Numbered from the stretch's first letter, positions 11,618-36,006 are shown. The stretch: DNA of 55,832 nt from Rickettsiales bacterium (GCA_031263095.1 JAISGI010000019.1:1-55832); one strand, 5' to 3'. Program-made: numbers and translations. Notes: a model not told the origin generated them from the letters alone.

Positions 11618-12970
11618 TCAAGGAGTATTGCCCAGCCGCCGCCAATCGACCATGCCCGCCATTTTGGGAAAGTTTTTGTCAAGCACAGCATACTGCACGT
11701 TCGCCTTGTCTCGCACCACCACGAACCGCGCCGCATCCGCCTCCGAAAGCTTCTGCGTCGGCGGCAGTTTCACGGTCAAAGGGTTGACGTGCGAGCCGTC
11801 CTTTATAATCTCATAGTGCAAATGCGGACCCGTAGAAAGCCCCGTGTTCCCAACATAGCCCACGACCTGCCCCTGCTGCACGCGCGAACCAACGCCGATA
11901 CCCGATTTGAACGAGCTCATGTGCCCGTACGCGGTGGAATAAGTCGCGTTGTGCCTGATTTTGATGTAGTTCCCATACCCCTGCTTCCACCCGCGGAAAA
12001 CCACGGTACCCGCGCCGCCCGCGGGAATAGGCGTGCCCGACGGAGCCGCGAAATCCACCCCCTGGTGCGCACGCGAATAGCCAAGCACTGGGTGCTTGCG
12101 CCAGCCGTACTTGGACGAAATCCGCGCCCCGTTTATAGGAGTTTTCTTGAGCGTTTTGCTGGCCGACTTGCCGTTCTCGTCGAAGTATTGGGCAGACCCG
12201 TTCGCCCCCTCGAACCGGTAAAGCTTGAACTCCCCCTTGCGCGAATTCAGGAACAACGAGGCATACACAAGGTCGCCGCTGCCAAGATATTCGCCCTTGG
12301 CGCTGTGGCGTTCCTGGTACATCACGCTGAACGTGTCGCCGGGATAGATGTCCCGCTCGAAATCAACGTCGAAGGAAAATATTTCATAGAATTTGTCGAT
12401 TATGTTATAAGGAATCCCGGCACGCGTCGCAACTTCGATAAGGCTCTCGCCCTTGGTGATTTCGCCCTCCTTGCGCACAAGCTCGGCCTGCGACTCGACA
12501 TGGATTTCCGAGGCGGCAAATCCTCCCTCGCCCCGCGCCGCAACTATTTTATAAATAGGAGAACGCTCGATTTCAAGACGCACAAGCTCCGCCCGGTCGT
12601 TTATAAGCGGCCGGTATTTGACGAAAATCTTGTCCTGCCCGGGCTTGAGCTCGTTGGGCTTGATAAGGCCGACAAGCGCCTTCGAAACCTCCAACACCTC
12701 GGCGTAATCTATGCCCAAAGGGGTAAGGAGCGAGGCGAACGAGTCGCCCTTTGCAATGGCAAGCTCCGCCGTCGCATTCTTGCCCACAAGGTCATCCAAA
12801 AGCGAAGCCAGAGCGAACGACGGCCGCGCCTGTATCGGCGACCCCGCCTCGGCCGGCTCATAGTGCCCGTCGCTTGGCCCAGAAAACCCGAGCGCAAACG
12901 AAAACAGGCAGAAAACCGCCGCCACAAGTGCGAGCGCTCTGTGCGCCCCTATGCGTTTCTTTGTTGGCAT
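11618..12970 (-). CDS. M23 family peptidoglycan DD-endopeptidase (MepM/Csd3-like)
   Basis: HQGVDF (HxxxD), GYGNY, YGHMS, STGPHLHYE; N-terminal TM/signal. Confidence 0.9.
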   Translation of the reverse strand: MPTKKRIGAHRALALVAAVFCLFSFALGFSGPSDGHYEPAEAGSPIQARPSFALASLLDDLVGKNATAELAIAKGDSFASLLTPLGIDYAEVLEVSKALVGLIKPNELKPGQDKIFVKYRPLINDRAELVRLEIERSPIYKIVAARGEGGFAASEIHVESQAELVRKEGEITKGESLIEVATRAGIPYNIIDKFYEIFSFDVDFERDIYPGDTFSVMYQERHSAKGEYLGSGDLVYASLFLNSRKGEFKLYRFEGANGSAQYFDENGKSASKTLKKTPINGARISSKYGWRKHPVLGYSRAHQGVDFAAPSGTPIPAGGAGTVVFRGWKQGYGNYIKIRHNATYSTAYGHMSSFKSGIGVGSRVQQGQVVGYVGNTGLSTGPHLHYEIIKDGSHVNPLTVKLPPTQKLSEADAARFVVVRDKANVQYAVLDKNFPKMAGMVDWRRLGNTP

Positions 12971-13009
12971 GACCAAATGATTATAATATATTTTCAAGGC
13001 CTTTTCAAC

Positions 13010-13648
13010 TCATAAATAATCATAGCGAAAGCGCGCCGCCATGTCCATAAAGCCCGGCACAACCTCGTACACCGACCACCCGCACTTGGCGTCGAAATAG
13101 GTTTTAAGCGACATGAACATCTTGAACCTGTCAAGCCCCGCCTCAAGCCGCCCATACCGAAACATCGAATCTATCGCCCGCTGCTCGAGCGTAACATAGC
13201 ACTCTTTAAGCGCTATCCCGTCCGCAAGCTGGACAAGACGGTCATAGTCGTCATACTCGATAGAGGCGAGGAATCCCGACACAAGCTCCCGCACCTCGGC
13301 TGGCGCGTCCGGCTCGGAAACGGTGGAAAGATCGCCTTGGTCGAGATACCCGTGCGTAATACAGTACCGCGCCCACTCCGGCCTGCCGCGGGACATAAGG
13401 AAGCGGAACCCCAAAACCTCGTGCCAAAACAGCGGCGCACCCCTGCCGTTCCCGCGCGGGTCAAACCGCCCGCAGTCATGCAGAAGCGTCGCGCAGTACG
13501 CACGCGTCCCGTCCATTCCCGCAAGCCCGGCCACCGCCCTCGCGAATTCTGCGGCATAGCGCGAATGCTCAGCCCAGCCGGTCGTGCAACCCGCCTCCGC
13601 GCACATCCGCACAGCTTCGGTTAGCAGTTTTTCAGCATCACGTTCCAT
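13010..13648 (-). CDS. HD-domain phosphohydrolase
   Basis: HS, LLHDCGR, H...G, CITH, LVQLAD motifs. Confidence 0.8.
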   Translation of the reverse strand: MERDAEKLLTEAVRMCAEAGCTTGWAEHSRYAAEFARAVAGLAGMDGTRAYCATLLHDCGRFDPRGNGRGAPLFWHEVLGFRFLMSRGRPEWARYCITHGYLDQGDLSTVSEPDAPAEVRELVSGFLASIEYDDYDRLVQLADGIALKECYVTLEQRAIDSMFRYGRLEAGLDRFKMFMSLKTYFDAKCGWSVYEVVPGFMDMAARFRYDYL

Positions 13649-15571: not shown

Positions 15572-16954
15572 CTACACCTTGAGCTCGTAGAGCGAGGCGA
15601 AGCAGCCAGCACCGCCGGACTTGCCCGCAGCCTCTTGCCCCGGTGTGTTGTTCACTATTGCGGCATCGCCGTTTTTAAGCTCGTACTCGTCGGACTTTAT
15701 GCCGGTGCCTACGTCTATGCGGCCAGTATCGCTCTTGTCCAGAGTGTACTTGGTCTCGCTGGAAACCGCGAACACCTGGCTGTTCCAGTCGGAATCCGAG
15801 CACCACCCCTCCATCTTGTAGATTCCGGCGGGCACTTTCTTGGATACCTCCTTGGCCTCCGATGTGTCGAGAAGCTTCCACTTGGGTTCCTCGCCGACGC
15901 ACGCCTCGGCCTCTCCATAGGACAGGAACTTGTTCATGGAAAGGCAGGCGTCGCGGATAGAACCTCTGTGCTCGCCTTCGGCTTTGGCCAGCAGACGGTC
16001 CTTCTCCGCTTCGGCCTTCTCGAAGAACGCCTCGTCAAGCCCTTCGCGCTTCAGCTTGGCAGCGTCGCGCTCCGCCTGAAGCCCGGCGATGTGGGCAAGC
16101 CTGTCCGCCTCGGCCTGGTTTTCCGCCTCCTGCTCGAGAGCGTCCCTGTCGTTCTTGGCCTGGGCGATGTCGGACTTCAGCTTGTCGATCTGGACAAGCG
16201 CGTCCGCAGTGTCGGCGGCCTTGTCGGTCTTGGCTTTGGTGATGAGGATTCTGGCTTTCTCCATGAATACCGCGGTGTCGATGTCAAGCTGATCCGCGGC
16301 GTCGCGCGCTTTCTGCTCTTCCTTGACGCTCGACAGCTGGAACTTGGCTATCGAGGCGTTCGTGGCGGAAACGTCGGTCGCCGGGTCGGTGGCAAGCAGG
16401 GCCGCGGCCTCGGTATAGGCCTGGGATGCTTCGCCGCTGAACCCGTCGGCGGCATCGGCCGCTTCCTCTATCTTGTCGGCGGTCGCATCGGCAGTGTCGT
16501 ATGCGGCCTGCAAAATCTCCTTGTCCTTCTCGGTAAGGAATTGCTGGGAAAGCATGGGGCCAAGCCCGTCGACGCTCTTGCGCGCGTTGTCGGCATAGGC
16601 CCTTGTACGCTCGACCGAGGCTTCGATTGCCTCAAGCTCGGTCAAGGTGCTTGTCGTAGCGGCGGCGGCTTCGACACCCGCCGCTCCTGCACGACCCCCG
16701 TCGGCGGAACGTGCGGCGCCACGGCCACCTGCCCGGGCGGTTCCCGCTGCCCTCGCTCCGCGCCCGGTCGAGGCTGCGCGGGCCGAACCGCCCCTGCCCC
16801 TGGTCGTTGCGGCGGCGCGGGCCGAACCGCCCCTGCCCTTCGCAGAGCTTGCTGCGCGCGCGGGCTGTTTCTTTGTGCTCTTTTGCGGAGCCGCGTCGAT
16901 GGCCGAAGCCGCGACAAGCGCACCCGCGAAAAGTATTGCTGATAGTTTATTCAT
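15572..16954 (-). CDS. secreted protein: basic SARAA-repeat N-terminus, Ala/Glu coiled coil, Cys-containing C-domain
   Basis: Signal peptide, KKQPARAASSAKG shared with the upstream gene, heptad-rich middle; AGGAGA RBS. Confidence 0.8.
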   Translation of the reverse strand: MNKLSAILFAGALVAASAIDAAPQKSTKKQPARAASSAKGRGGSARAAATTRGRGGSARAASTGRGARAAGTARAGGRGAARSADGGRAGAAGVEAAAATTSTLTELEAIEASVERTRAYADNARKSVDGLGPMLSQQFLTEKDKEILQAAYDTADATADKIEEAADAADGFSGEASQAYTEAAALLATDPATDVSATNASIAKFQLSSVKEEQKARDAADQLDIDTAVFMEKARILITKAKTDKAADTADALVQIDKLKSDIAQAKNDRDALEQEAENQAEADRLAHIAGLQAERDAAKLKREGLDEAFFEKAEAEKDRLLAKAEGEHRGSIRDACLSMNKFLSYGEAEACVGEEPKWKLLDTSEAKEVSKKVPAGIYKMEGWCSDSDWNSQVFAVSSETKYTLDKSDTGRIDVGTGIKSDEYELKNGDAAIVNNTPGQEAAGKSGGAGCFASLYELKV

Positions 16955-16967
16955 TTCATTCTCTCCT

Positions 16968-18830
16968 TTACATGCGTTTCAGGGTTACCCAGCCGGGCAT
17001 TCCGCCGTTGCCGCTGCCCGAGCCGCCTTTGGCGCCCAGGCCGGAACCATACAGAACTTGGGCCACGGGGCCGGTCGCCTCGCCGGACTTCATCTCTTTA
17101 AGCGAGCCATCCGAGGGAACGCTTGAAACAGCCTCGACTATGCCCTGTGTGATGCCTTCGGTCGCCAAACCGGCGATAGCTCCTCCGGCTGCTCCAATTC
17201 CAGCAGTTATGGCAACGTTGGCGGCAACAATTGCACCGGTACCAGAAATAACACCCCAACCGCCGGCGCTTGCAAGACCTAATACCCCAATACCGGCAGG
17301 AGCGAATAGAACGGTTGCGGCGACGCCCGCGACTGCAACCAAAGGAGTGATTATGTCGGTCCAGCTGAATCCATTTCCGCCGCCACCTCCGCCGCCATAG
17401 GCGCCGAATCCGCCGAAGCCCTCGATCTCGGTTCCGTCGGCAAGCGTAAGCCCGAACGCCGAATATCCGCCGCCCGCGCCGCTTCCGCCTTTGCCGAAGC
17501 ATCCGGCGTTGCTGCCTCCGCCGCCCGCTGCGCCAAGCGTGCGGGTGTATTTATATTTGAGCGGGTTCTTCAGGTCTTTCTTGCCGTCCTCGCCGATTCT
17601 ATAGGTCGGCAGGCTGAACCACACGCGGGAAATGTCCGCGCGTCCGCCCGAGGCGCCGTCGCGCTTGGTCCATGCGCATTTATAGCGCCCGCCTCCGCCT
17701 CCTCCTCCGCCTGATACTTCAAGATAATAGAGTCCGCCAACAATCTCGCCCGTGCTGCCAAGCTCGATTGGCCCGGTCGGCATCGAGCTTTCGACTTTCG
17801 CGATAAGCGCTTCGATTTCCTTGTTGCGCTTGTCGGCAAGCTCGTCCGCCGCGGCGTCCTCCTTGCGATAGTCGAAGTCCTTGACCTGGTTCTCGCGCCC
17901 GATTTCTATGGTTTCCATCTGGGTTTTAAGGTCGCGGTACTTCGCCGACTGTTTCAAGGGGTCTTTCTCCTCGGAATCTTTGGCGTATGTCGGAATGGCT
18001 ACAAGCTGCCTGTCGAGCTTCGCAAGCTGGGTGCTGTAGTCGTCCAGAACCGCGGCAAGCGACTTCGCCCTCGCGCTCGGCGTCGCGGCCATATAGGCAT
18101 CGTATGCCGTGCGGAAGTCGGCGTACCCGTCCGCCTCTCCAGTGGGCGTAAGCTTTGCGGGCGGAGTGTATTTGACCCCGGTTTCATCCTCGAACAGCTC
18201 GTACATCCCGGCTATGCCCTCGATTTTAAGCGTTTCCGCGTCAAGCTCTTTCTGAACCTTGTCGACTTCCGCCTGATTCTTGCCGTCCTTGGCTGCCTGC
18301 ATCTGGGAGCGCAGTTCGCCTAGCCTTCCCCCTGTCCTCTCGCCGGTAAGCTCGTCTTCTTCTCCTGCAAGGTTGGTAAGATGGGTAGAGAGTTTGTCCC
18401 TCTCGGCCGCGGCCTTGTCTGCGTCTTTGGTAAGCGATTCGGCCTCAACGTACATCTCGATGTCCGCACGCGCCTTGGCAAGTGCAGCCTGAAGCTTGGC
18501 GGCTTTGTCTTCCGCCGTGGATGTCGACACCGCCGCGGTCGCTACACCCGGAGCTCCGGCCAAGGGTATGGCCTCCTCGGTTTGAGCAGCACCCCTGCCC
18601 GCCCCGCGCGAGGCGCCCCTTGTAGCGCTGCCGCCGCGCGTTCCTGCCGCCCGGGCCGAGCCAGCGCCCTTGCCCTTGACCGCAGCGCGCGCAGATTTGG
18701 CGCCACCCTTTGCCGAGCTTGCCGCCCGCGCCGGTTGTTTTTTGTTGTTGTTCTTTTTGGGCGGAGGCGCCGAAACGACCGAAGTCGCCGCGACGATAAG
18801 CCCTAAAAGCAATGCAAGTTGTTTTTTCAT
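16968..18830 (-). CDS. secreted protein: basic N-terminus, coiled coil, Gly-rich domain with hydrophobic glycine-zipper insert
   Basis: Signal peptide; KKQPARAASSAKG; YYLEVSGGGGGGGG...GWVTLK Gly-rich domain; ~65-aa hydrophobic segment. Confidence 0.8.
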   Translation of the reverse strand: MKKQLALLLGLIVAATSVVSAPPPKKNNNKKQPARAASSAKGGAKSARAAVKGKGAGSARAAGTRGGSATRGASRGAGRGAAQTEEAIPLAGAPGVATAAVSTSTAEDKAAKLQAALAKARADIEMYVEAESLTKDADKAAAERDKLSTHLTNLAGEEDELTGERTGGRLGELRSQMQAAKDGKNQAEVDKVQKELDAETLKIEGIAGMYELFEDETGVKYTPPAKLTPTGEADGYADFRTAYDAYMAATPSARAKSLAAVLDDYSTQLAKLDRQLVAIPTYAKDSEEKDPLKQSAKYRDLKTQMETIEIGRENQVKDFDYRKEDAAADELADKRNKEIEALIAKVESSMPTGPIELGSTGEIVGGLYYLEVSGGGGGGGGRYKCAWTKRDGASGGRADISRVWFSLPTYRIGEDGKKDLKNPLKYKYTRTLGAAGGGGSNAGCFGKGGSGAGGGYSAFGLTLADGTEIEGFGGFGAYGGGGGGGNGFSWTDIITPLVAVAGVAATVLFAPAGIGVLGLASAGGWGVISGTGAIVAANVAITAGIGAAGGAIAGLATEGITQGIVEAVSSVPSDGSLKEMKSGEATGPVAQVLYGSGLGAKGGSGSGNGGMPGWVTLKRM

Positions 18831-19120: not shown

Positions 19121-19726
19121 ATGATAGTGGCCTATGAGCGCATATCCAAGAATACCGAGCACCTCGAAAACCAGAGGCACCTCATAATGCGCTATACCGC
19201 CGAGAACAGCATAATTATAGACAAGTGGGTATCCGAGGTCAAATGCGGCGCCGCCCCGCTCGAGGGCAGACGCCTGAACCAGGTCCTGCGGCGCATAAAG
19301 CGGGACGACATAAAGCTTATCGTCGTGGCCGAACTCTCCCGCCTCGGCCGCTCGCTATACCAGGTCATGGGCATAATCGACAAGGTGCTCTCCTCCGGCT
19401 GTGCCCTGTGGATAGCCAAGGAAGACCACAAGCTCGACACCGGCACAATCTCCCAGATGCAGTGCTTTGCATGGAGCCTGTCCGCACAGATAGAGCGCGA
19501 GCTTATCTCCTCGCGCACCAAGGCCGCCCTCGCAAGATTGAAGGCCGAGGGCAAAAAGCTTGGCCGGCCCGTTGGCTCGCGCACGGCGTTCCGGCGCCTC
19601 GACGGCAAGCGCGAGCATATCCTCTCCCTGCTCTCCGGCGGCATGGCGAAATCCACACTCGCCAAACGGCTAAGGATAAGCGTCCCGACCCTCTATCGCT
19701 TTCTCTCTGAATATGAACATGCGTGA
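19121..19726 (+). CDS. serine recombinase, Mpi-like DNA invertase family
   Basis: AYERIS (catalytic Ser), ENQR, ELSRLGRSL, AQIERELISSRTKAALARLKAEGKKLGRP, C-terminal HTH. Confidence 0.9.
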   Translation: MIVAYERISKNTEHLENQRHLIMRYTAENSIIIDKWVSEVKCGAAPLEGRRLNQVLRRIKRDDIKLIVVAELSRLGRSLYQVMGIIDKVLSSGCALWIAKEDHKLDTGTISQMQCFAWSLSAQIERELISSRTKAALARLKAEGKKLGRPVGSRTAFRRLDGKREHILSLLSGGMAKSTLAKRLRISVPTLYRFLSEYEHA

Positions 19727-30981: not shown

Positions 30982-31911
30982 ATGTTATTTCAACAACCAA
31001 AGTTTTGGCAAAGAAAGGGGATAATCGCCCTCGTCCTCTTCCCTCTCTCGCTGCTATACAGATTCGCCGCAGCGGTAAAACGCATGCGCGCAAGCCCGTA
31101 CAGGGCGAAAATCCCGGTCGTGTGCATAGGGAACATAAGCATAGGCGGCACAGGCAAAACCCCGATTGTCGAGGCTGTCGCAAGGTTCTATATCAAGAAA
31201 CGCGCCCGCGTCGCCATCCTCTCCCGCGGCTACGGCGGAAGCGCTAAAGGCCCGCTAATCGTCAGGCCCGGCAAACACACGGCCGCAATGGTCGGGGACG
31301 AGCCGCTTATGCTCGCCACCGCCCTGCCCCGCGCGAAAGTTGTGATATGCGCCGACCGCGCCGCCTCCGCAAAGTTGATAGAGAACCGCGCGGATGTGAT
31401 TGTAATGGACGACGGACTCCAAAATTTTACCCTCGCCAAGACTTGCCAAGTCTGCGTTGTGCGCGGCCTCGGCAACGGTCTCACTCTGCCCGCCGGCCCT
31501 CTGCGCGAGCCCGCTTCTGCGCTGAAAAAAATGGACGCCATAATCGCGCCCGAGGGAATGAAATTCAAGGGCGCACACGTCTTCCATTCACGGACAAGGT
31601 TTGTCAAAAGGCCGAAACACGCCAGCAGCGCGATGGCCGGCATAGGCGACCCGCAAAGGTTTTTCAGCCATGTCGAGAGCGTCGCACGCACGAAGTTGAC
31701 GCACGCTTTTGCTTTCCCCGACCACCATTTTTATACCGACACAGAGCTTGAGGCCGTCGCAAAATTCGCGCCCGTCTATACCACGTCCAAGGACTTTGTG
31801 AAAATCCCCGACCGGCTGAAAAAATATTTTATAGAGGTGAAAATCAAAGCTGAAGTTGACGACGAATTTTTTCGAATTCTGCCCAAGTTAAATCGAGCGC
31901 GGCCGCGTTAG
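30982..31911 (+). CDS. lpxK: tetraacyldisaccharide 4'-kinase
   Basis: GNISIGGTGKTP, LSRGYGG, GDEP, MDDGLQ, PAGPLRE, FPDHH. Confidence 0.95.
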   Translation: MLFQQPKFWQRKGIIALVLFPLSLLYRFAAAVKRMRASPYRAKIPVVCIGNISIGGTGKTPIVEAVARFYIKKRARVAILSRGYGGSAKGPLIVRPGKHTAAMVGDEPLMLATALPRAKVVICADRAASAKLIENRADVIVMDDGLQNFTLAKTCQVCVVRGLGNGLTLPAGPLREPASALKKMDAIIAPEGMKFKGAHVFHSRTRFVKRPKHASSAMAGIGDPQRFFSHVESVARTKLTHAFAFPDHHFYTDTELEAVAKFAPVYTTSKDFVKIPDRLKKYFIEVKIKAEVDDEFFRILPKLNRARPR

Positions 31912-33031
31912 GCCTCAATAAATTTACAAAATTCTCCGCCGCAGTATAGCCAAGGGAATTGCGGAAATCCGCGCACGGAGCAAGCTTGCCCATAACTTGC
32001 GCATATTTCGCACGCTCCAAAATGTCGCCAGGCACGTCCGACACATCGACGATAATATTGTTCATGGAAACAATACCGACAAGCGGACATTTACGCCCGC
32101 CGATGTCCGCATAAGCACGCGTATATCCTCCGCCCGCATGCAGCTTCGCGCGGATGAAATTAAAGAGCCCGTTCGTCTTCGAAAGGCCGCGCGAATACCC
32201 GTCCGCATACCCAAGACACAACACCGCGACTTTCATTTTGCGCCGCGCAACATACTCGTCCGAATAGCCGATAGTCTCGCCCTTTACTACTTCGCGAACC
32301 TGCAAAATCCGCGCATATACATCGACGATTTGCTCCATCCCCGAAGCAAATCCATATAGTGCATAGCCAGGCCGCACAATGTCGAAATGATACTCCGCGC
32401 CAAGACGCAAAAGCCCGCTCGACGCCGCAAGCGACATCTCCGCCTTCGGCAGCGGCGCAACCATCGACGTGAAATTTTCAAGCTGCGACTTGCAATATTT
32501 GCCATACGAAAACGGCCCATGCAGGTGCGAAATATAAAGCACAATCTCAAGATTTCCCGCAAGCTTTTCAATGTCGCTCGCAAGCTCCCGAGCGTCTTGC
32601 ACCGACAGCCCCGTGCGGTTCATCCCTGTGTCGAAATGCACGCCCACCCGTGGCTTGCGCGACCGCCCCGCCGCCGCGGAATTATACGAGGCAAGCTGCG
32701 AAAGAGACACGCAAACCGGCACGATACCGCTCTCGATATAACGCTCCTCCTGCCCTTCCATAACGCCGGAAAAAGTGAACAGATTCGCACCCTTCACGCT
32801 CGCAAGAGAGGGCAAAACCACTTCCGCCTCGGCAAGCGTTTGCACAAAAAAGTCGCGCACTCCCTCGCGCACAAGAACGCCAGCGGCACGCTCCGCGCCG
32901 AACCCGTACGCATTGGATTTTATCGTAGCGCCAAGCCGGGCATGCGTAGCGCCCGCCGCACGCCTGACGTTCCTCGCGAACGCCTCCTCGTCATAAACCC
33001 GGATTATGTCGAAATTATCCTTGTAAATCAT
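31844..33031 (-). CDS. PLP-dependent amino-acid racemase (Alr fold, atypical specificity residues)
   Basis: IKSNAYG (PLP Lys), DTGMNR, VRPG..LYG, IGY (catalytic Tyr), GYADG, VSMN; leaderless promoter TTGTAA-N17-TATAAT. Confidence 0.85.
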   Translation of the reverse strand: MIYKDNFDIIRVYDEEAFARNVRRAAGATHARLGATIKSNAYGFGAERAAGVLVREGVRDFFVQTLAEAEVVLPSLASVKGANLFTFSGVMEGQEERYIESGIVPVCVSLSQLASYNSAAAGRSRKPRVGVHFDTGMNRTGLSVQDARELASDIEKLAGNLEIVLYISHLHGPFSYGKYCKSQLENFTSMVAPLPKAEMSLAASSGLLRLGAEYHFDIVRPGYALYGFASGMEQIVDVYARILQVREVVKGETIGYSDEYVARRKMKVAVLCLGYADGYSRGLSKTNGLFNFIRAKLHAGGGYTRAYADIGGRKCPLVGIVSMNNIIVDVSDVPGDILERAKYAQVMGKLAPCADFRNSLGYTAAENFVNLLRPNAAALDLTWAEFEKIRRQLQL

Positions 33032-33075
33032 AAGGCGATTATATACAATAAGCACAGGTTTTACAAGGAATTATT

Positions 33076-36006
33076 ATGAAGTTTTCAGAGCTCCTCTCTC
33101 CGCTAAACATAACTCCCGCCGCCGACGCCGAAATAACCGGCATAGCGAATAACTCTGGCGAGGTCTTGCCCGGCTTCCTGTTCATCGCGATAAAGGGATA
33201 CAGGTTCGACGGAGCAGATTTTATACCCGAAGCCGTGAAAAATGGAGCCGCCGCCATCCTCGCTGACCGCTCGGCAAGCGCGCTCGCAAACAAGTTCCCA
33301 AACACCGCGTTCGCCTTCGCCGACATGGACATGAGGCTCGCTGAAAGCAGGCTTGCGGCCACATTCTACCCCGACGCGCCAGCATTCGTCTGCGCCGTGA
33401 CCGGCACGAACGGCAAGTCCTCGGTCGTCAATTTCGCACGGCAATTGTGGGAGTTCGAGGGTACAAACGCCGCCTCGATTGGCACCGTCGGTATAAAGTC
33501 CAAGGTCCTCTCCGGCGGCAAAAGCCTGACCACGCCCGACGCGCTCGATTTGCATAGGAATCTCGAGGACTTGGCCCGCCTCGGCGTCTCCCGCGTCGCA
33601 CTCGAAACCTCAAGCCACGGCATAGAGCAACATAGGGCCGACAGCCTGAAAATCATGGCCGCAGGCTTCACGAATCTTTCGAACGACCACCTCGATTTTT
33701 ACAAGGACGTGGACGAGTATTTTAAGGCCAAACTAAGGCTGTTCAAAGAACTGCTCGACCCCTCCGGCACCGCGGTCGTGAACATCGAAGATCCCCGCGC
33801 AGACCAAGTAATCGAAGTTTGCCGCGCACGTAATATCAAAGTAATCGCATTCGGCGAACATGATAATGCCGACATAAAGCTGGTCTCTTATGAAATAAAG
33901 GGATATAAACAGCAAGTAAAACTCTCCGTCTTCGGAAAAATATTCGAAACGGAATTGAATCTGGTGACCAAATTCCAAATCTCGAACCTCATGTGCGCAA
34001 TAGGGCTGTTCGTCGCAGGCGGCGGCAGCATCGAAAAGGCCGCGCCACGCCTGCCCGAACTCGAAAACGAAAAGGGCCGCATAGAGTACGTCGCCACCGC
34101 GCCAAGCGGGGCAAGGATTTACGTCGACTTCGGCCACAACGGCGACGGCATAAAAAAATTGCTGACCGAGTTCCGCCCGTACGTCAAACACACCCTGACT
34201 TGCATAGCGGGCAGTAGCGGCGAACGCCCCGAAATCCGCCGCATAGAAATCGGCCAAGTCCTAAACGCCCTCGCCGACAAGGTGATAATAGTAGACGATA
34301 ACCCGCGCGCGGAAGACCCCGCGAAAATCCGCGCGACATTGCTGAAATACTGCCCCAAGGCGCGCGAAATCCCCGACCGCGAACGCGCGATAGAGGAGGC
34401 GATAGACACCTCCCGCGGCTGGGATTCAATAATAATCTGCGGCACCATGTACGAGAAAGACAAGGAGTTTATAAGGCAAAAGCTCGCCCCGCGCACCGTC
34501 CCGCTCGACCGGCTCCTGAACGAATCCGGCCTCACAAGCGCACCGTCCGCCGACGCGCGCACAATCGCCAACGTCTCCATGAATTCGCAGGGCATAATGC
34601 CGCCAGCGGTGTTCGTGGGCATACAGGGCTTCACGAAAAACGGCTCCGACTTCGCGGCCGAGGCCATCGGAAACGGCGCCGCCGCTCTCGTCGTCCCAAC
34701 CGATTACGAATTCGACGCACCAACGGCCAAACTGATAGAAGCAAAAAAAATCCCCGTAGCCCGCGCGAAGAGCACAAGGAAAGCCTTTGCCGACCTTGCC
34801 TATAACTTCTACGGCCGCAGCCAACCCGACACGGTTTGCGCTGTCACCGGCACAAGCGGCAAGTCCTCGACCGTGGATTTTTTGCGCCAGATGTGGGCGC
34901 TCCTGAAGCTGCCCGCCCTCTCCGCCGGCACCATAGGAGTGATTGTGGATAATGTCTACTCCGAGGAGAAAATCGTCAAATACGCCGAAGACCACACCTC
35001 GCCCGTCGGGGACGAGATTTATAAGAACCTCGCCTACTTCAAGGGCAAAGGTGTCGAACACGGCGCGCTCGAAATGTCAAGCCACGGCATCGATCAGCTC
35101 CGCGCGGAAAATATAAGGATACGCGCCGCAGGATTTACCAACCTCGGCACCGACCACGTTGACTTCTACGGCTCGCCCGAAAAATATTTGCAAAGCAAAT
35201 CCCGCCTGTTCACCGAATGCGTCGATGACGGCGGCGCGGCAGTCCTCAACGCCGACATTCCAGAATACGAATTCCTGCGCCAAGTGTGCGAAAAACGCGG
35301 CCTGCGAGTAATCGCCTACGGCCGTGCCCCCACCGCCGACCTGAAAATCATATCGCAGGAAATCAGCCTCGACGGCCAGCGCGCGGAGGTCGAATTATTC
35401 GGCAAACGCCATACGCTCGAGCTTAAAATTTTGGGCCGCTTCCAACTGATGAACCTGCTCTGCGCCATCGGCCTCCTCGCCGCCACAACACCGGATTGGG
35501 AGCAGGTTTTGCCAAGACTTGGCCTGCTCAAGAACGCCCTCGGCCGCTTGGAATACATGGGCCGCACAAAAAGCGGTGCAAGCATTTATGTCGACTTCTC
35601 GTACAAGGGCGACGCACTCGAAAGCACGCTCAAAAACTTGCGCTCGATGTCAACCGGCCGCCTGGTGCTTGTATTTTCCACCTGCGGCGACGTGTACGAA
35701 ACAAGACGACGCAAGGAGCTTGGCGAGGCCGCGCGCGACTTCGCCGATGTGGCGATACTTACCGACGACAGCCCGCGCACCGAAGACCCGCAGAAAATCA
35801 GGGACGAGATTCTCGCCCACTGCCCCGGCGCACTCGAAGTGAAAACCGGCCGCCGCGACGCTATCGCCAAGGCAATCAAACTCGCCCAGGCAAACGATAT
35901 AATCCTCGTCGCCGGCAAAGGCCACGAGGATTATATTACGATAGGCGAGGAGAATATCCCATATACCGACCAGGATACGATTCGCGAACTACTTCTTCGG
36001 CCATAA
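33076..36006 (+). CDS. tandem MurE-MurE fusion (two complete Mur ligase units)
   Basis: Two P-loops (GTNGKS, GTSGKS), two E.SSHG, two FTNL..DH.DFY, DDNPR and DDSPR; one terminal AGKGHE. Confidence 0.88.
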   Translation: MKFSELLSPLNITPAADAEITGIANNSGEVLPGFLFIAIKGYRFDGADFIPEAVKNGAAAILADRSASALANKFPNTAFAFADMDMRLAESRLAATFYPDAPAFVCAVTGTNGKSSVVNFARQLWEFEGTNAASIGTVGIKSKVLSGGKSLTTPDALDLHRNLEDLARLGVSRVALETSSHGIEQHRADSLKIMAAGFTNLSNDHLDFYKDVDEYFKAKLRLFKELLDPSGTAVVNIEDPRADQVIEVCRARNIKVIAFGEHDNADIKLVSYEIKGYKQQVKLSVFGKIFETELNLVTKFQISNLMCAIGLFVAGGGSIEKAAPRLPELENEKGRIEYVATAPSGARIYVDFGHNGDGIKKLLTEFRPYVKHTLTCIAGSSGERPEIRRIEIGQVLNALADKVIIVDDNPRAEDPAKIRATLLKYCPKAREIPDRERAIEEAIDTSRGWDSIIICGTMYEKDKEFIRQKLAPRTVPLDRLLNESGLTSAPSADARTIANVSMNSQGIMPPAVFVGIQGFTKNGSDFAAEAIGNGAAALVVPTDYEFDAPTAKLIEAKKIPVARAKSTRKAFADLAYNFYGRSQPDTVCAVTGTSGKSSTVDFLRQMWALLKLPALSAGTIGVIVDNVYSEEKIVKYAEDHTSPVGDEIYKNLAYFKGKGVEHGALEMSSHGIDQLRAENIRIRAAGFTNLGTDHVDFYGSPEKYLQSKSRLFTECVDDGGAAVLNADIPEYEFLRQVCEKRGLRVIAYGRAPTADLKIISQEISLDGQRAEVELFGKRHTLELKILGRFQLMNLLCAIGLLAATTPDWEQVLPRLGLLKNALGRLEYMGRTKSGASIYVDFSYKGDALESTLKNLRSMSTGRLVLVFSTCGDVYETRRRKELGEAARDFADVAILTDDSPRTEDPQKIRDEILAHCPGALEVKTGRRDAIAKAIKLAQANDIILVAGKGHEDYITIGEENIPYTDQDTIRELLLRP

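Follow-up and report, generated by a model that had tools for sequence, protein, structure and literature searches.

The stretch of DNA analysed here (the window; 55,832 nucleotides of a Rickettsiales bacterium, GCA_031263095.1 JAISGI010000019.1:1-55832) carries a gene encoding two complete MurE-type ligases within a single protein of 976 amino acids (aa), divergently paired with a gene for a pyridoxal phosphate (PLP)-dependent racemase of the alanine racemase (Alr) fold. MurE decides which amino acid carries the cross-link in bacterial walls, and bacteria normally have one MurE of near-absolute specificity. The window is contig C11 of a 44-contig, 854,641-base assembly that is 88.6% complete (genome G000, a member of family f1, hereafter the family). 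Features of the locus are given below in window coordinates, with motif conservation counted over 23 full-length family proteins.

33076..36006, plus strand: murE-murE, 976 aa, two complete MurE-type ligases (open reading frame call, Pfam, TIGR01085).
33076..34470, plus strand: unit 1, residues 1 to ~465 (TIGR01085, 333 bits; alignment to solved MurE structures).
33397..33423, plus strand: P-loop of unit 1, VTGTNGKSS, residues 108-116 (xTGTNGKSS in 23/23 proteins).
34297..34308, plus strand: DNPR motif of unit 1, residues 408-411 (DDNPR in 22/23 proteins, DDDPR in 1/23).
34471..34560, plus strand: junction, residues ~466-495, a helix and linker between the last domain (C-terminal) of unit 1 and the first (N-terminal) of unit 2.
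34561..36003, plus strand: unit 2, residues ~496-976, a full-length MurE (TIGR01085, 346 bits; alignment to E. coli MurE).
34843..34869, plus strand: P-loop of unit 2, VTGTSGKSS, residues 590-598 (TG[TS]xGKSS in 23/23 proteins).
35767..35778, plus strand: DSPR motif of unit 2, residues 898-901 (DDSPR in 23/23 proteins).
31844..33055, minus strand: Alr-fold PLP racemase (PF01168 and PF00842).
33021..33066, no strand assigned: compact divergent control region with two overlapping sigma-70-like sites, one per strand (consensus matches only).

The Pfam models Mur_ligase (PF01225), Mur_ligase_M (PF08245) and Mur_ligase_C (PF02875) each matched two stretches of the 976-aa protein. When the protein was split for scoring at residue 476, both halves (1-476 and 477-976) passed the murE model TIGR01085 (333.3 bits for unit 1 and 345.8 bits for unit 2, cut-off 257.3) and both failed the murF model TIGR01143 (104.6 and 85.5 bits, cut-off 288.6). 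Scores against NF008896, the bifunctional MurE/MurF model, were 354 and 339 bits (cut-off 1023), and the halves matched only the MurE part of that model. The two units share 39% identity (E 2e-106), and the junction between them, bounded by the end of the MurE alignments of unit 1 and the start of those of unit 2, was modelled with a pLDDT of 77-92. An AlphaFold2 model of the whole protein, built from a 19-sequence alignment, reached a pLDDT of 89.2 and a pTM of 0.80, and in Foldseek comparisons the single units matched product-bound E. coli MurE (1E8C) with a TMt of 0.83 and a root-mean-square deviation (rmsd) of 2.7 Å. The protein is a true MurE-MurE tandem, a head-to-tail fusion, as the original prediction had proposed, and the ligase motifs and both P-loops quoted there are all present. 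The candidate reading in which one half is a MurF was rejected, as both halves fail TIGR01143 and the tree described below sets both apart from MurF with a support of 100.

In order to define the distribution of the tandem, unit 2 was searched against 61 genomes of the same order. Matches were obtained in 17 genomes of the family, with both units in 15 of them and unit 2 alone in the remaining two (G014 and G016), and the two family genomes with no match at all are only 70% and 61% complete. In the 15 two-unit genomes the gene is a single open frame of 913-1056 codons free of stops, or is interrupted by a contig end. A protein database yielded 29 matches at 51-64% identity, all from the window's family, of which four carry NCBI names (MAG Rickettsiales bacterium for two, Alphaproteobacteria bacterium and 'bacterium' for the others), and the next-best matches were ordinary MurE-MurF fusions at ~30-33% identity. 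Among the best 120 of 1252 matches, two strong MurE units were found in family proteins only. The fusion is a trait of the family and not an accident of assembly. A separate canonical murE, which the original prediction had asked about, was rejected for G000, where a genome-wide profile search placed only the two units over the cut-off and the rest were MurC, MurD and a MurF-like ligase; more complete relatives (94-97%) likewise hold only the two MurE units. MurE is present as a single copy in the sister families f2 and f6. Family f4 gave no MurE match at E <= 1e-20 in 32 genomes (96-100% complete) and no Alr, MurI, DapA or DapF in the two genomes searched, and this family has probably lost peptidoglycan synthesis altogether.

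The relationship of the units was examined in a quick IQ-TREE analysis (LG+C20) of 12 of the 23 full-length family proteins split into units, six single MurEs from f2 and f6, 24 MurE halves taken from a set of 82 MurE-MurF fusions (the first 6 and another 18 chosen randomly) and 10 MurF halves as the outgroup. Unit 1, unit 2, f2 and f6 formed one clade within MurE (support 97), and the branch separating both units from the 10 MurF halves had a support of 100, so that neither half groups with MurF on the phylogenetic check that had been suggested. Unit 1 and unit 2 were each monophyletic (100 for both). In the free tree f2 joined unit 1 with a support of 87; the alternatives of a clade of unit 1 with unit 2 (approximately unbiased test, p-AU 0.44) and of unit 2 with f2 (p-AU 0.42) were not rejected. 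As both units lie in the order's own MurE clade, a fusion acquired from a distant donor is unsupported, and the tandem arose by duplication of the order's own murE, in f1 or slightly earlier.

The two genomes with unit 2 alone show what the family can dispense with. In G014 and G016 an open frame of 658 and 632 codons, respectively, encodes a remnant of the unit 1 C-terminal domain followed by an intact unit 2. The remnant is degenerate, begins near residue 335 of unit 1 in both genomes and lacks DNPR, and the N-terminal and ATP-binding domains of unit 1 have been lost. The search with unit 2 gave no further MurE match in either genome. G014 and G016 are sisters nested in genus g4 (support 99), with their unit 2 sequences on long branches, and the same arrangement recurs in three proteins of the database (618-639 aa). 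As G014 and G016 are just 61% identical, the state without unit 1 is evidently old and viable. Unit 2, the sole MurE left in these genomes, is therefore the indispensable MurE, and unit 1, though dispensable, is conserved in all cases where it occurs.

The P-loop, the Glu of the E-SSH motif, the His of the DH motif and a carbamylatable Lys have catalytic roles in MurE. Section 11 of PMC9434261 also describes catalytic-residue roles in MurE, and it gives the residues of the E. coli enzyme that bind UDP-MurNAc (UDP-N-acetylmuramic acid) as S28, HQA45, NTT158, S184 and QxR192. Across the 23 proteins, both units keep the P-loop, the E-SSH motif (its Glu and its Ser-Ser-His), the DH motif and the Y..AK..LF Lys, with one unit 1 sequence of the 23 reading EASNYG instead of ETSSHG. 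In the family alignment the equivalents of S28, TT158, S184 and QxR192 are invariant or nearly so in both units (unit 1/unit 2: S27/S504, T152-T153/T641-T642, S179-S180/S668-S669 and Q185-R187/Q674-R676), and the HQA45 triplet is conserved in neither. Selection was measured by pairwise Nei-Gojobori comparison of 12 genomes (66 pairs), with five genomes excluded for a copy that was truncated or without unit 1. In the four closest species pairs, with synonymous divergence (dS) of 0.55-0.99, the ratio of nonsynonymous (dN) to synonymous divergence was 0.066-0.127 for unit 1 and 0.045-0.081 for unit 2, and the median dN over all 66 pairs was 0.237 and 0.231, respectively. Both units are under strong purifying selection. 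From their residues both units look like working ligases, and we infer catalytic competence for each.

The units differ in the residues that would contact the incoming amino acid. According to section 11 of PMC9434261, the meso-diaminopimelate (DAP) contacts of E. coli MurE are G464, E468, D413 and N414 at the D-centre, R389 at the carboxylate of the L-centre and R416 at both centres. Passages of PMC3829189 describe the Asn and Arg of DNPR as binding the distal carboxylate and, together with PMC3681970, treat DNPR as the mark of the meso-DAP-specific subclass of MurE. In unit 1 all six contacts are kept (R384, D408, N409, R411, G456 and E460), and in unit 2 four of the six, with R389 replaced by Y874 and N414 by S899 (DSPR), so that the meso-DAP contact set is complete in unit 1 and incomplete in unit 2. 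Unit 2 also has Y843 in place of the His of DYAH (VDFSY, where unit 1 reads VDFGH) and CGDVY at the GGDRD site, and it retains GKGHE and the C-terminal tail. Unit 1 has its own changes: CGTMYE stands where unit 2 has AGKGHE, so that GKGHE is replaced by GTMYE, a Pro takes the place of the Asp after the Arg of GGDRD (SGERP), and the usual MurE C-terminal tail of ~30 aa is missing. These states are fixed in the family, with STCG[DN]x[YL]E in 23/23 unit 2 sequences and Tyr at the R389 position in 22/23, and they depart from the 112 nearest stand-alone MurEs, every one of which (112/112) carries DNPR, GKGHE, the DYAH His and the GGDRD Arg. The remodelling of both amino-acid-binding domains that had been predicted is thereby upheld, and judging by the alignments the motif differences are real departures. 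The single MurE of sister family f2, for which searches for DapA and DapF were likewise negative, reads DSPR or ISPR, and that of f6, a family with DapF, reads DNPR.

The remainder of the peptidoglycan pathway in G000 includes MurC, MurB and MurG on contig C13, MraY and MurD on C30, Ddl (246.6 bits, cut-off 245.65), MurI and UppP. A canonical MurF was not found in G000 or in the three other family genomes searched for it (G010, G014 and G016). All four hold a MurF-like ligase of 530-570 aa that matches positions ~65-403 of the MurF model at 182-215 bits, and in which the N-terminal (UDP-binding) domain is replaced by ~190-215 aa with four to five hydrophobic segments. In G000 its gene (C17:24068-25783, plus strand, = L060:7069-8781; relatives at L033, L034 and L035) adjoins uppP. 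Of the separate murF whose presence the original prediction wished checked, a MurF-like ligase was thus found and a canonical enzyme was not. A full-length MurF that passes the cut-off is present in families f2 and f6. As the same MurF-like architecture is seen in Atlas clusters from Pseudomonadota, Bacillota and Campylobacterota, the protein is probably a working MurF variant, and it may be a membrane-anchored enzyme that adds D-Ala-D-Ala. A reading in which MurF is missing and one unit of the tandem replaces it was rejected on the presence of this ligase in G000 and the three other family genomes.

DapF was found in none of 16 family genomes, compared to both of the f6 genomes searched, DapA was likewise found in none of the 16, and LysA over the cut-off was found in none of the 25 genomes searched. 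As DapA, DapF and LysA were not found, the family appears to make neither DAP nor lysine, and on the same grounds the altered peptidoglycan suggested in the original prediction is plausible. A search of five genomes for L,D-transpeptidases (YkuD) found none, a result that is uninformative on the type of cross-link. Several further observations were made during these searches. MurI was not found in G014, alone among the 15 other family genomes searched, this genome being 93% complete and without unit 1. The single-MurE genomes of family f2 are G019, G024, G028 and G031 (loci L029 and L049-L051); MurF and Ddl were sought in one of them, G019, which holds a canonical MurF and no Ddl, and a search of two (G019 and G024) for Alr, MurI, DapF and DapA found none of these. 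Family f2 seems to have a peptidoglycan pathway without the usual suppliers of D-amino acids. On C13 of G000, N- and C-terminal pieces of a T7-type phage terminase large subunit (12799-13410 and 16401-17261 = L058) are separated by ftsZ and another open reading frame, as a split or rearranged prophage remnant or a misassembly would leave them.

The protein encoded by the divergent gene passes the cut-offs of Ala_racemase_N (PF01168) and Ala_racemase_C (PF00842). It reads VGIVSMNN and VHFDTGMNRTG, confirming in sequence the GIVSMN motif and the missing Lys before DTG that had been reported for it. Against TIGR00492 (Alr) the window's copy scores 145-151 bits (cut-off 168), and the cut-off is reached by orthologues in six relatives (G005, G006, G009, G010, G012 and G013), though for four of these it takes the addition of neighbouring same-frame matches. 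The catalytic residues of alanine racemase are the PLP-binding Lys and a second catalytic Tyr. The motifs KSNAYG and GYADGY align with those of solved alanine racemases, among them the Bartonella henselae enzyme (3KW3), and are kept in the three family racemases aligned. The best solved relative is 3KW3 (E 1e-37), from an alphaproteobacterium, with weaker matches to solved broad-spectrum and lysine racemases (E 1e-13 to 1e-10). The N-terminus aligns with cytoplasmic Alr from residue 20 and shows no hydrophobic leader or export signal. Passages of PMC6034422 describe the broad-spectrum racemase of Pseudomonas putida as periplasmic, and in neither periplasmic targeting nor closer kinship does the window's racemase fit that class (Bsr / P. 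putida Alr type). Features specific to the family are an insert of ~17 aa before the GIVSMN strand and SMN instead of SMD.

Of the 15 other family genomes, 14 have this racemase as their sole Alr-family match (the remaining genome is 70% complete), and it adjoins the ligase gene in each of those 14 and in G016, so that the predicted pairing is conserved in every family genome in which both genes were located. A separate alr does exist in G000, where a second Alr passes the cut-off with 181 bits (C28:11505-12551, minus strand, = L062:2482-3564); it was found in G000 only among the 16 family genomes searched, and in the 14 relatives the paired racemase stands alone. Since it is the only Alr there, with D-Ala required by Ddl and D-Glu accounted for by MurI, the paired racemase would most simply act as a housekeeping alanine racemase. 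The proposal that it makes an unusual D-amino acid thus found no support, given the Ddl that these relatives also hold and the kinship to 3KW3. The second Alr lies directly upstream of a gene for a D-Ala-D-Ala-dipeptidase-like protein (DdpX/VanX-like, a weak match of 72 bits; L062:1841-2482, minus strand) and downstream of an unnamed 502-aa open reading frame, in an apparent operon with the dipeptidase-like gene, and this may be a cluster for the salvage or catabolism of D-Ala-D-Ala.

The racemase gene has two candidate starts, an ATG at 33031 that gives 395 aa (the probable one) and a GTG at 33055 that gives the longest open reading frame, 403 aa. The head-to-head spacing of 44 bp that had been noted holds from the ATG, and from the GTG it is 20 bp. 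Two sigma-70-like sites, overlapping and divergent, were observed compared to 0.2 expected from shuffles, and the ATG is favoured as the better fit to these two sites. AAGGA sits 7 nt upstream of the ligase ATG. The pair is flanked by tatC, waaA, sufE and lpxK on one side and by rpoC and rpoB on the other and hence lies outside any division and cell wall (dcw) cluster, in agreement with the earlier placement of the ligase gene. The 3' ends of lpxK (30982..31911, plus strand) and the racemase gene (31844..33055, minus strand) overlap convergently by 68 bp. Elsewhere in the window, 19121..19723 (plus strand) matches the master DNA invertase, a serine recombinase of the Mpi family, with 190 bits, below the 272-bit cut-off.

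The reading that we favour, tentatively and with somewhat less than even confidence, is that the tandem is a pair of position-3 ligases that work in parallel with different pockets, of which unit 2 is the indispensable one, and that the racemase is a housekeeping alanine racemase. The host family consists of uncultured alphaproteobacteria with genomes of ~1 Mb, where no diaminopimelate/lysine pathway was found, and the fusion is the only MurE of an otherwise ordinary pathway with MurB, MurC, MurD, MraY, MurG, Ddl, MurI and the MurF-like ligase. Both units would take UDP-MurNAc-L-Ala-D-Glu and add the third residue in parallel rather than in series. Unit 1, with its full meso-DAP contact set, could use scavenged DAP, and unit 2, having lost two DAP contacts and gained two tyrosines, would probably accept or prefer another residue, for which a lysine- or ornithine-type diamino acid is the candidate in a cell without DAP. 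The divergent racemase would feed Ddl as the alanine racemase of the lineage. The parallel arrangement fits best because two active-looking units share MurE-type residues for the nucleotide substrate and hold fixed but differing amino-acid contacts, and because one unit suffices, a MurF-like enzyme is present separately and the cell has no DAP supply of its own.

Several points weigh against this arrangement. MurF, MraY and the transpeptidases would need to accept two kinds of stem peptide within the same cell, and a lysine-adding MurE is described as lethal in E. coli in passages of PMC3829189. As unit 2 keeps the equivalents of R416, D413, G464 and E468, it may still use DAP, and according to PMC9434261 the DDPR-bearing MurE of T. 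maritima can still take DAP in vitro. Unit 1 is itself odd, and with GKGHE changed to GTMYE and Asp to Pro after the GGDRD Arg, the label of a plain DAP ligase is an extrapolation. Sequence motifs are poor predictors of MurE specificity in the relevant parts of PMC3829189 and PMC9434261, the former also describing little structural specificity for lysine in the Staphylococcus aureus enzyme. In addition, the genome of the window is just 88.6% complete, the absence of Dap genes rests on three marker families in draft genomes mostly 92-97% complete, and no DAP importer was identified.

A further step, which we regard as possible but rather doubtful, is that the third residue of the stem peptide has changed or is in the middle of changing in this family, with unit 1 as the old DAP-type enzyme, unit 2 as the new lysine- or ornithine-type enzyme, and the subclade of G014 and G016 as one that has dropped unit 1. 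The substrate of unit 2 could then possibly even be a D-amino acid from the adjacent racemase. If true, the locus would present a natural dual-specificity MurE and a non-DAP wall in Proteobacteria, with three evolutionary stages caught.

An unlikely alternative is that the units are redundant, with both adding the same residue (e.g. scavenged meso-DAP), the motif changes reflecting drift with compensation, and the fusion serving dosage, stability or the assembly of a Mur complex. The equivalents of D413, R416, G464 and E468 in both units fit such redundancy, as do the loss of unit 1 without replacement in G014 and G016, the in vitro use of DAP by a DDPR-type enzyme (T. maritima MurE, as described in PMC9434261) and the part that other Mur chimeras are thought to play in assembly and stoichiometry in passages of PMC10214165. 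Drift, however, is a poor match to unit-specific pocket motifs that are fixed in the family and differ from 112/112 relatives, which looks like two optima. A redundant copy should also decay, whereas the dN/dS of unit 1 (0.07-0.13) is similar to that of unit 2, and no source of DAP was found for either unit to share.

Still less probable, in our estimate, is a sequential or branching scheme, in which unit 2 adds residue 3 and unit 1 adds an optional further residue at the level of the nucleotide precursor, e.g. on a free carboxyl of the stem peptide. The precedent would be MurE-MurF, in which consecutive steps are fused (described in PMC10214165), as here two active-looking ligases share one chain, and G014 and G016 could have lost unit 1 under this scheme provided that its step is optional. 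Against this, unit 1 keeps the UDP-MurNAc/dipeptide-binding residues, HQA45 apart, and the whole DAP contact set of a position-3 ligase, and the next step is already covered by the MurF-like enzyme. The order is also wrong for channelling, as the indispensable first step would belong to the C-terminal unit, and the modelled units are arranged unlike those of the MurE-MurF structure 8F5D (rmsd 16.7 Å over 832 columns). The version in the original prediction, with two residues ligated in sequence from the N-terminal to the C-terminal unit, is unsupported, given two genomes without unit 1 and a separate MurF-like ligase.

We consider it improbable, slightly more so than a sequential scheme, that the tandem holds a non-catalytic pseudo-enzyme, most likely unit 1, which serves as a scaffold or regulator, docks other Mur enzymes and leaves unit 2 as the only ligase. 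Unit 1 does lack GKGHE and the C-terminal tail, it is dispensable in a subclade that keeps a remnant of its C-terminal domain as an N-terminal extension of unit 2, and one of two moss MurE paralogues is apparently no ligase despite DNPR (PMC9434261, in the passages concerned). A scaffold, however, would need none of the P-loop, metal and acyl-phosphate residues and six amino-acid contacts that unit 1 retains family-wide, nor purifying selection as strong as that on unit 2. Least probable of all is a D-amino-acid module, in which a broad-spectrum racemase supplies D-Ala plus another residue (e.g. D-Lys) for one MurE unit: conserved head-to-head pairing wherever both genes were located, the ~17-aa insert and SMN for SMD of the racemase, a second Alr over its curated cut-off in G000 alone and the D-Lys-adding T. 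maritima MurE, which departs at the same two positions as unit 2 (passages of PMC9434261), would fit it, but the racemase is the sole Alr homologue of 14 relatives that need D-Ala for Ddl, matches an alphaproteobacterial alanine racemase (E 1e-37) far more closely than it does the solved racemases of broad-spectrum or lysine type (E 1e-13 to 1e-10), has no export signal, unlike the periplasmic P. putida enzyme (as described in PMC6034422), and shares its missing Lys before DTG with 3KW3.

A conserved tandem with differing pockets in a family with no detectable DAP or lysine synthesis amounts to a natural experiment in the change of MurE specificity, displaying duplication, pocket divergence and loss of one copy as stages. 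What it predicts for this uncultured, host-associated group is a peptidoglycan that is unusual or mixed. Its two units could further serve as ready-made enzymes in tests of the pocket residues that really set MurE specificity, an issue left unsettled by mutagenesis of S. aureus MurE according to passages of PMC3829189.

Among known systems, the MurE-MurF chimera of Bordetella pertussis (8F5D, described in passages of PMC10214165) is the closest in architecture, with two Mur ligases likewise fused head to tail in ~950 aa, and it is the top match to the whole 976-aa protein in both sequence and fold (Foldseek, 832 columns). This chimera type is common in Proteobacteria. The second unit of the tandem is a MurE and not a MurF, so that paralogues for the same step are joined instead of consecutive enzymes, and the modelled orientation of the units relative to one another differs, as the rmsd of 16.7 Å indicates. 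The chimera survey, in the passages of PMC10214165 that list the types, names MurE-MurF, MurC-Ddl, MurC-MurB, MurG-MurC, MurD-FtsW and MraY-MurG, with unidentified species excluded, and MurE-MurE is not among the types named there. Full-text literature searches did not turn up a tandem MurE. One Mur ligase homologue of Streptomycetaceae, of DUF1727 type and presumably MurT-like, was considered as a possible precedent since it goes by the name 'second murE'. It was rejected on its identity as that homologue in the pertinent part of PMC7601586.

Canonical meso-DAP MurE (E. coli 1E8C, Mycobacterium tuberculosis 2WTZ) has the same three-domain fold (TMt 0.81-0.83), with catalytic motifs and, apart from the HQA45 triplet, UDP-MurNAc contacts like those of the tandem and all six DAP contacts shared with unit 1. 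It differs in that GKGHE and the C-terminal tail are missing from unit 1 and two DAP contacts from unit 2, and in that the host of the tandem has no detectable DAP pathway. Thermotoga maritima MurE (4BUB), deposited as an L,D-lysine ligase, departs from the DAP contacts at the same two positions as unit 2, with DDPR compared to DSPR (the Arg kept in both) and the Arg of GGDRD replaced in both (GGNSD in T. maritima). Passages of PMC9434261 describe it as adding L- and D-Lys to the wall and accepting DAP in vitro. It is a single-unit enzyme from another phylum, has Asp and Ser where unit 2 has Ser and Tyr, and lacks the change from His to Tyr; its substrates have been measured, whereas those of unit 2 are predicted. 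The moss Physcomitrium patens (passages of PMC9434261) has two paralogues, MurE1 and MurE2, with DNPR-type residues in both and just one needed for peptidoglycan. These are separate eukaryotic genes, MurE2 having extensions and another role, whereas both units of the tandem retain ligase motifs under purifying selection. For the racemase, 3KW3 aligns over residues 20-360 with the PLP-Lys and GYADG motifs and likewise has no Lys before D-T-x-M; it reads GHISMD where the window's racemase has GIVSMN, an extra 17-aa insert and a score of 151 bits, under the 168-bit Alr cut-off. In total, the MurE-MurE tandem adds a type to the catalogue of Mur fusions, a chimera of new composition whose setting points to a changed chemistry of the stem peptide.

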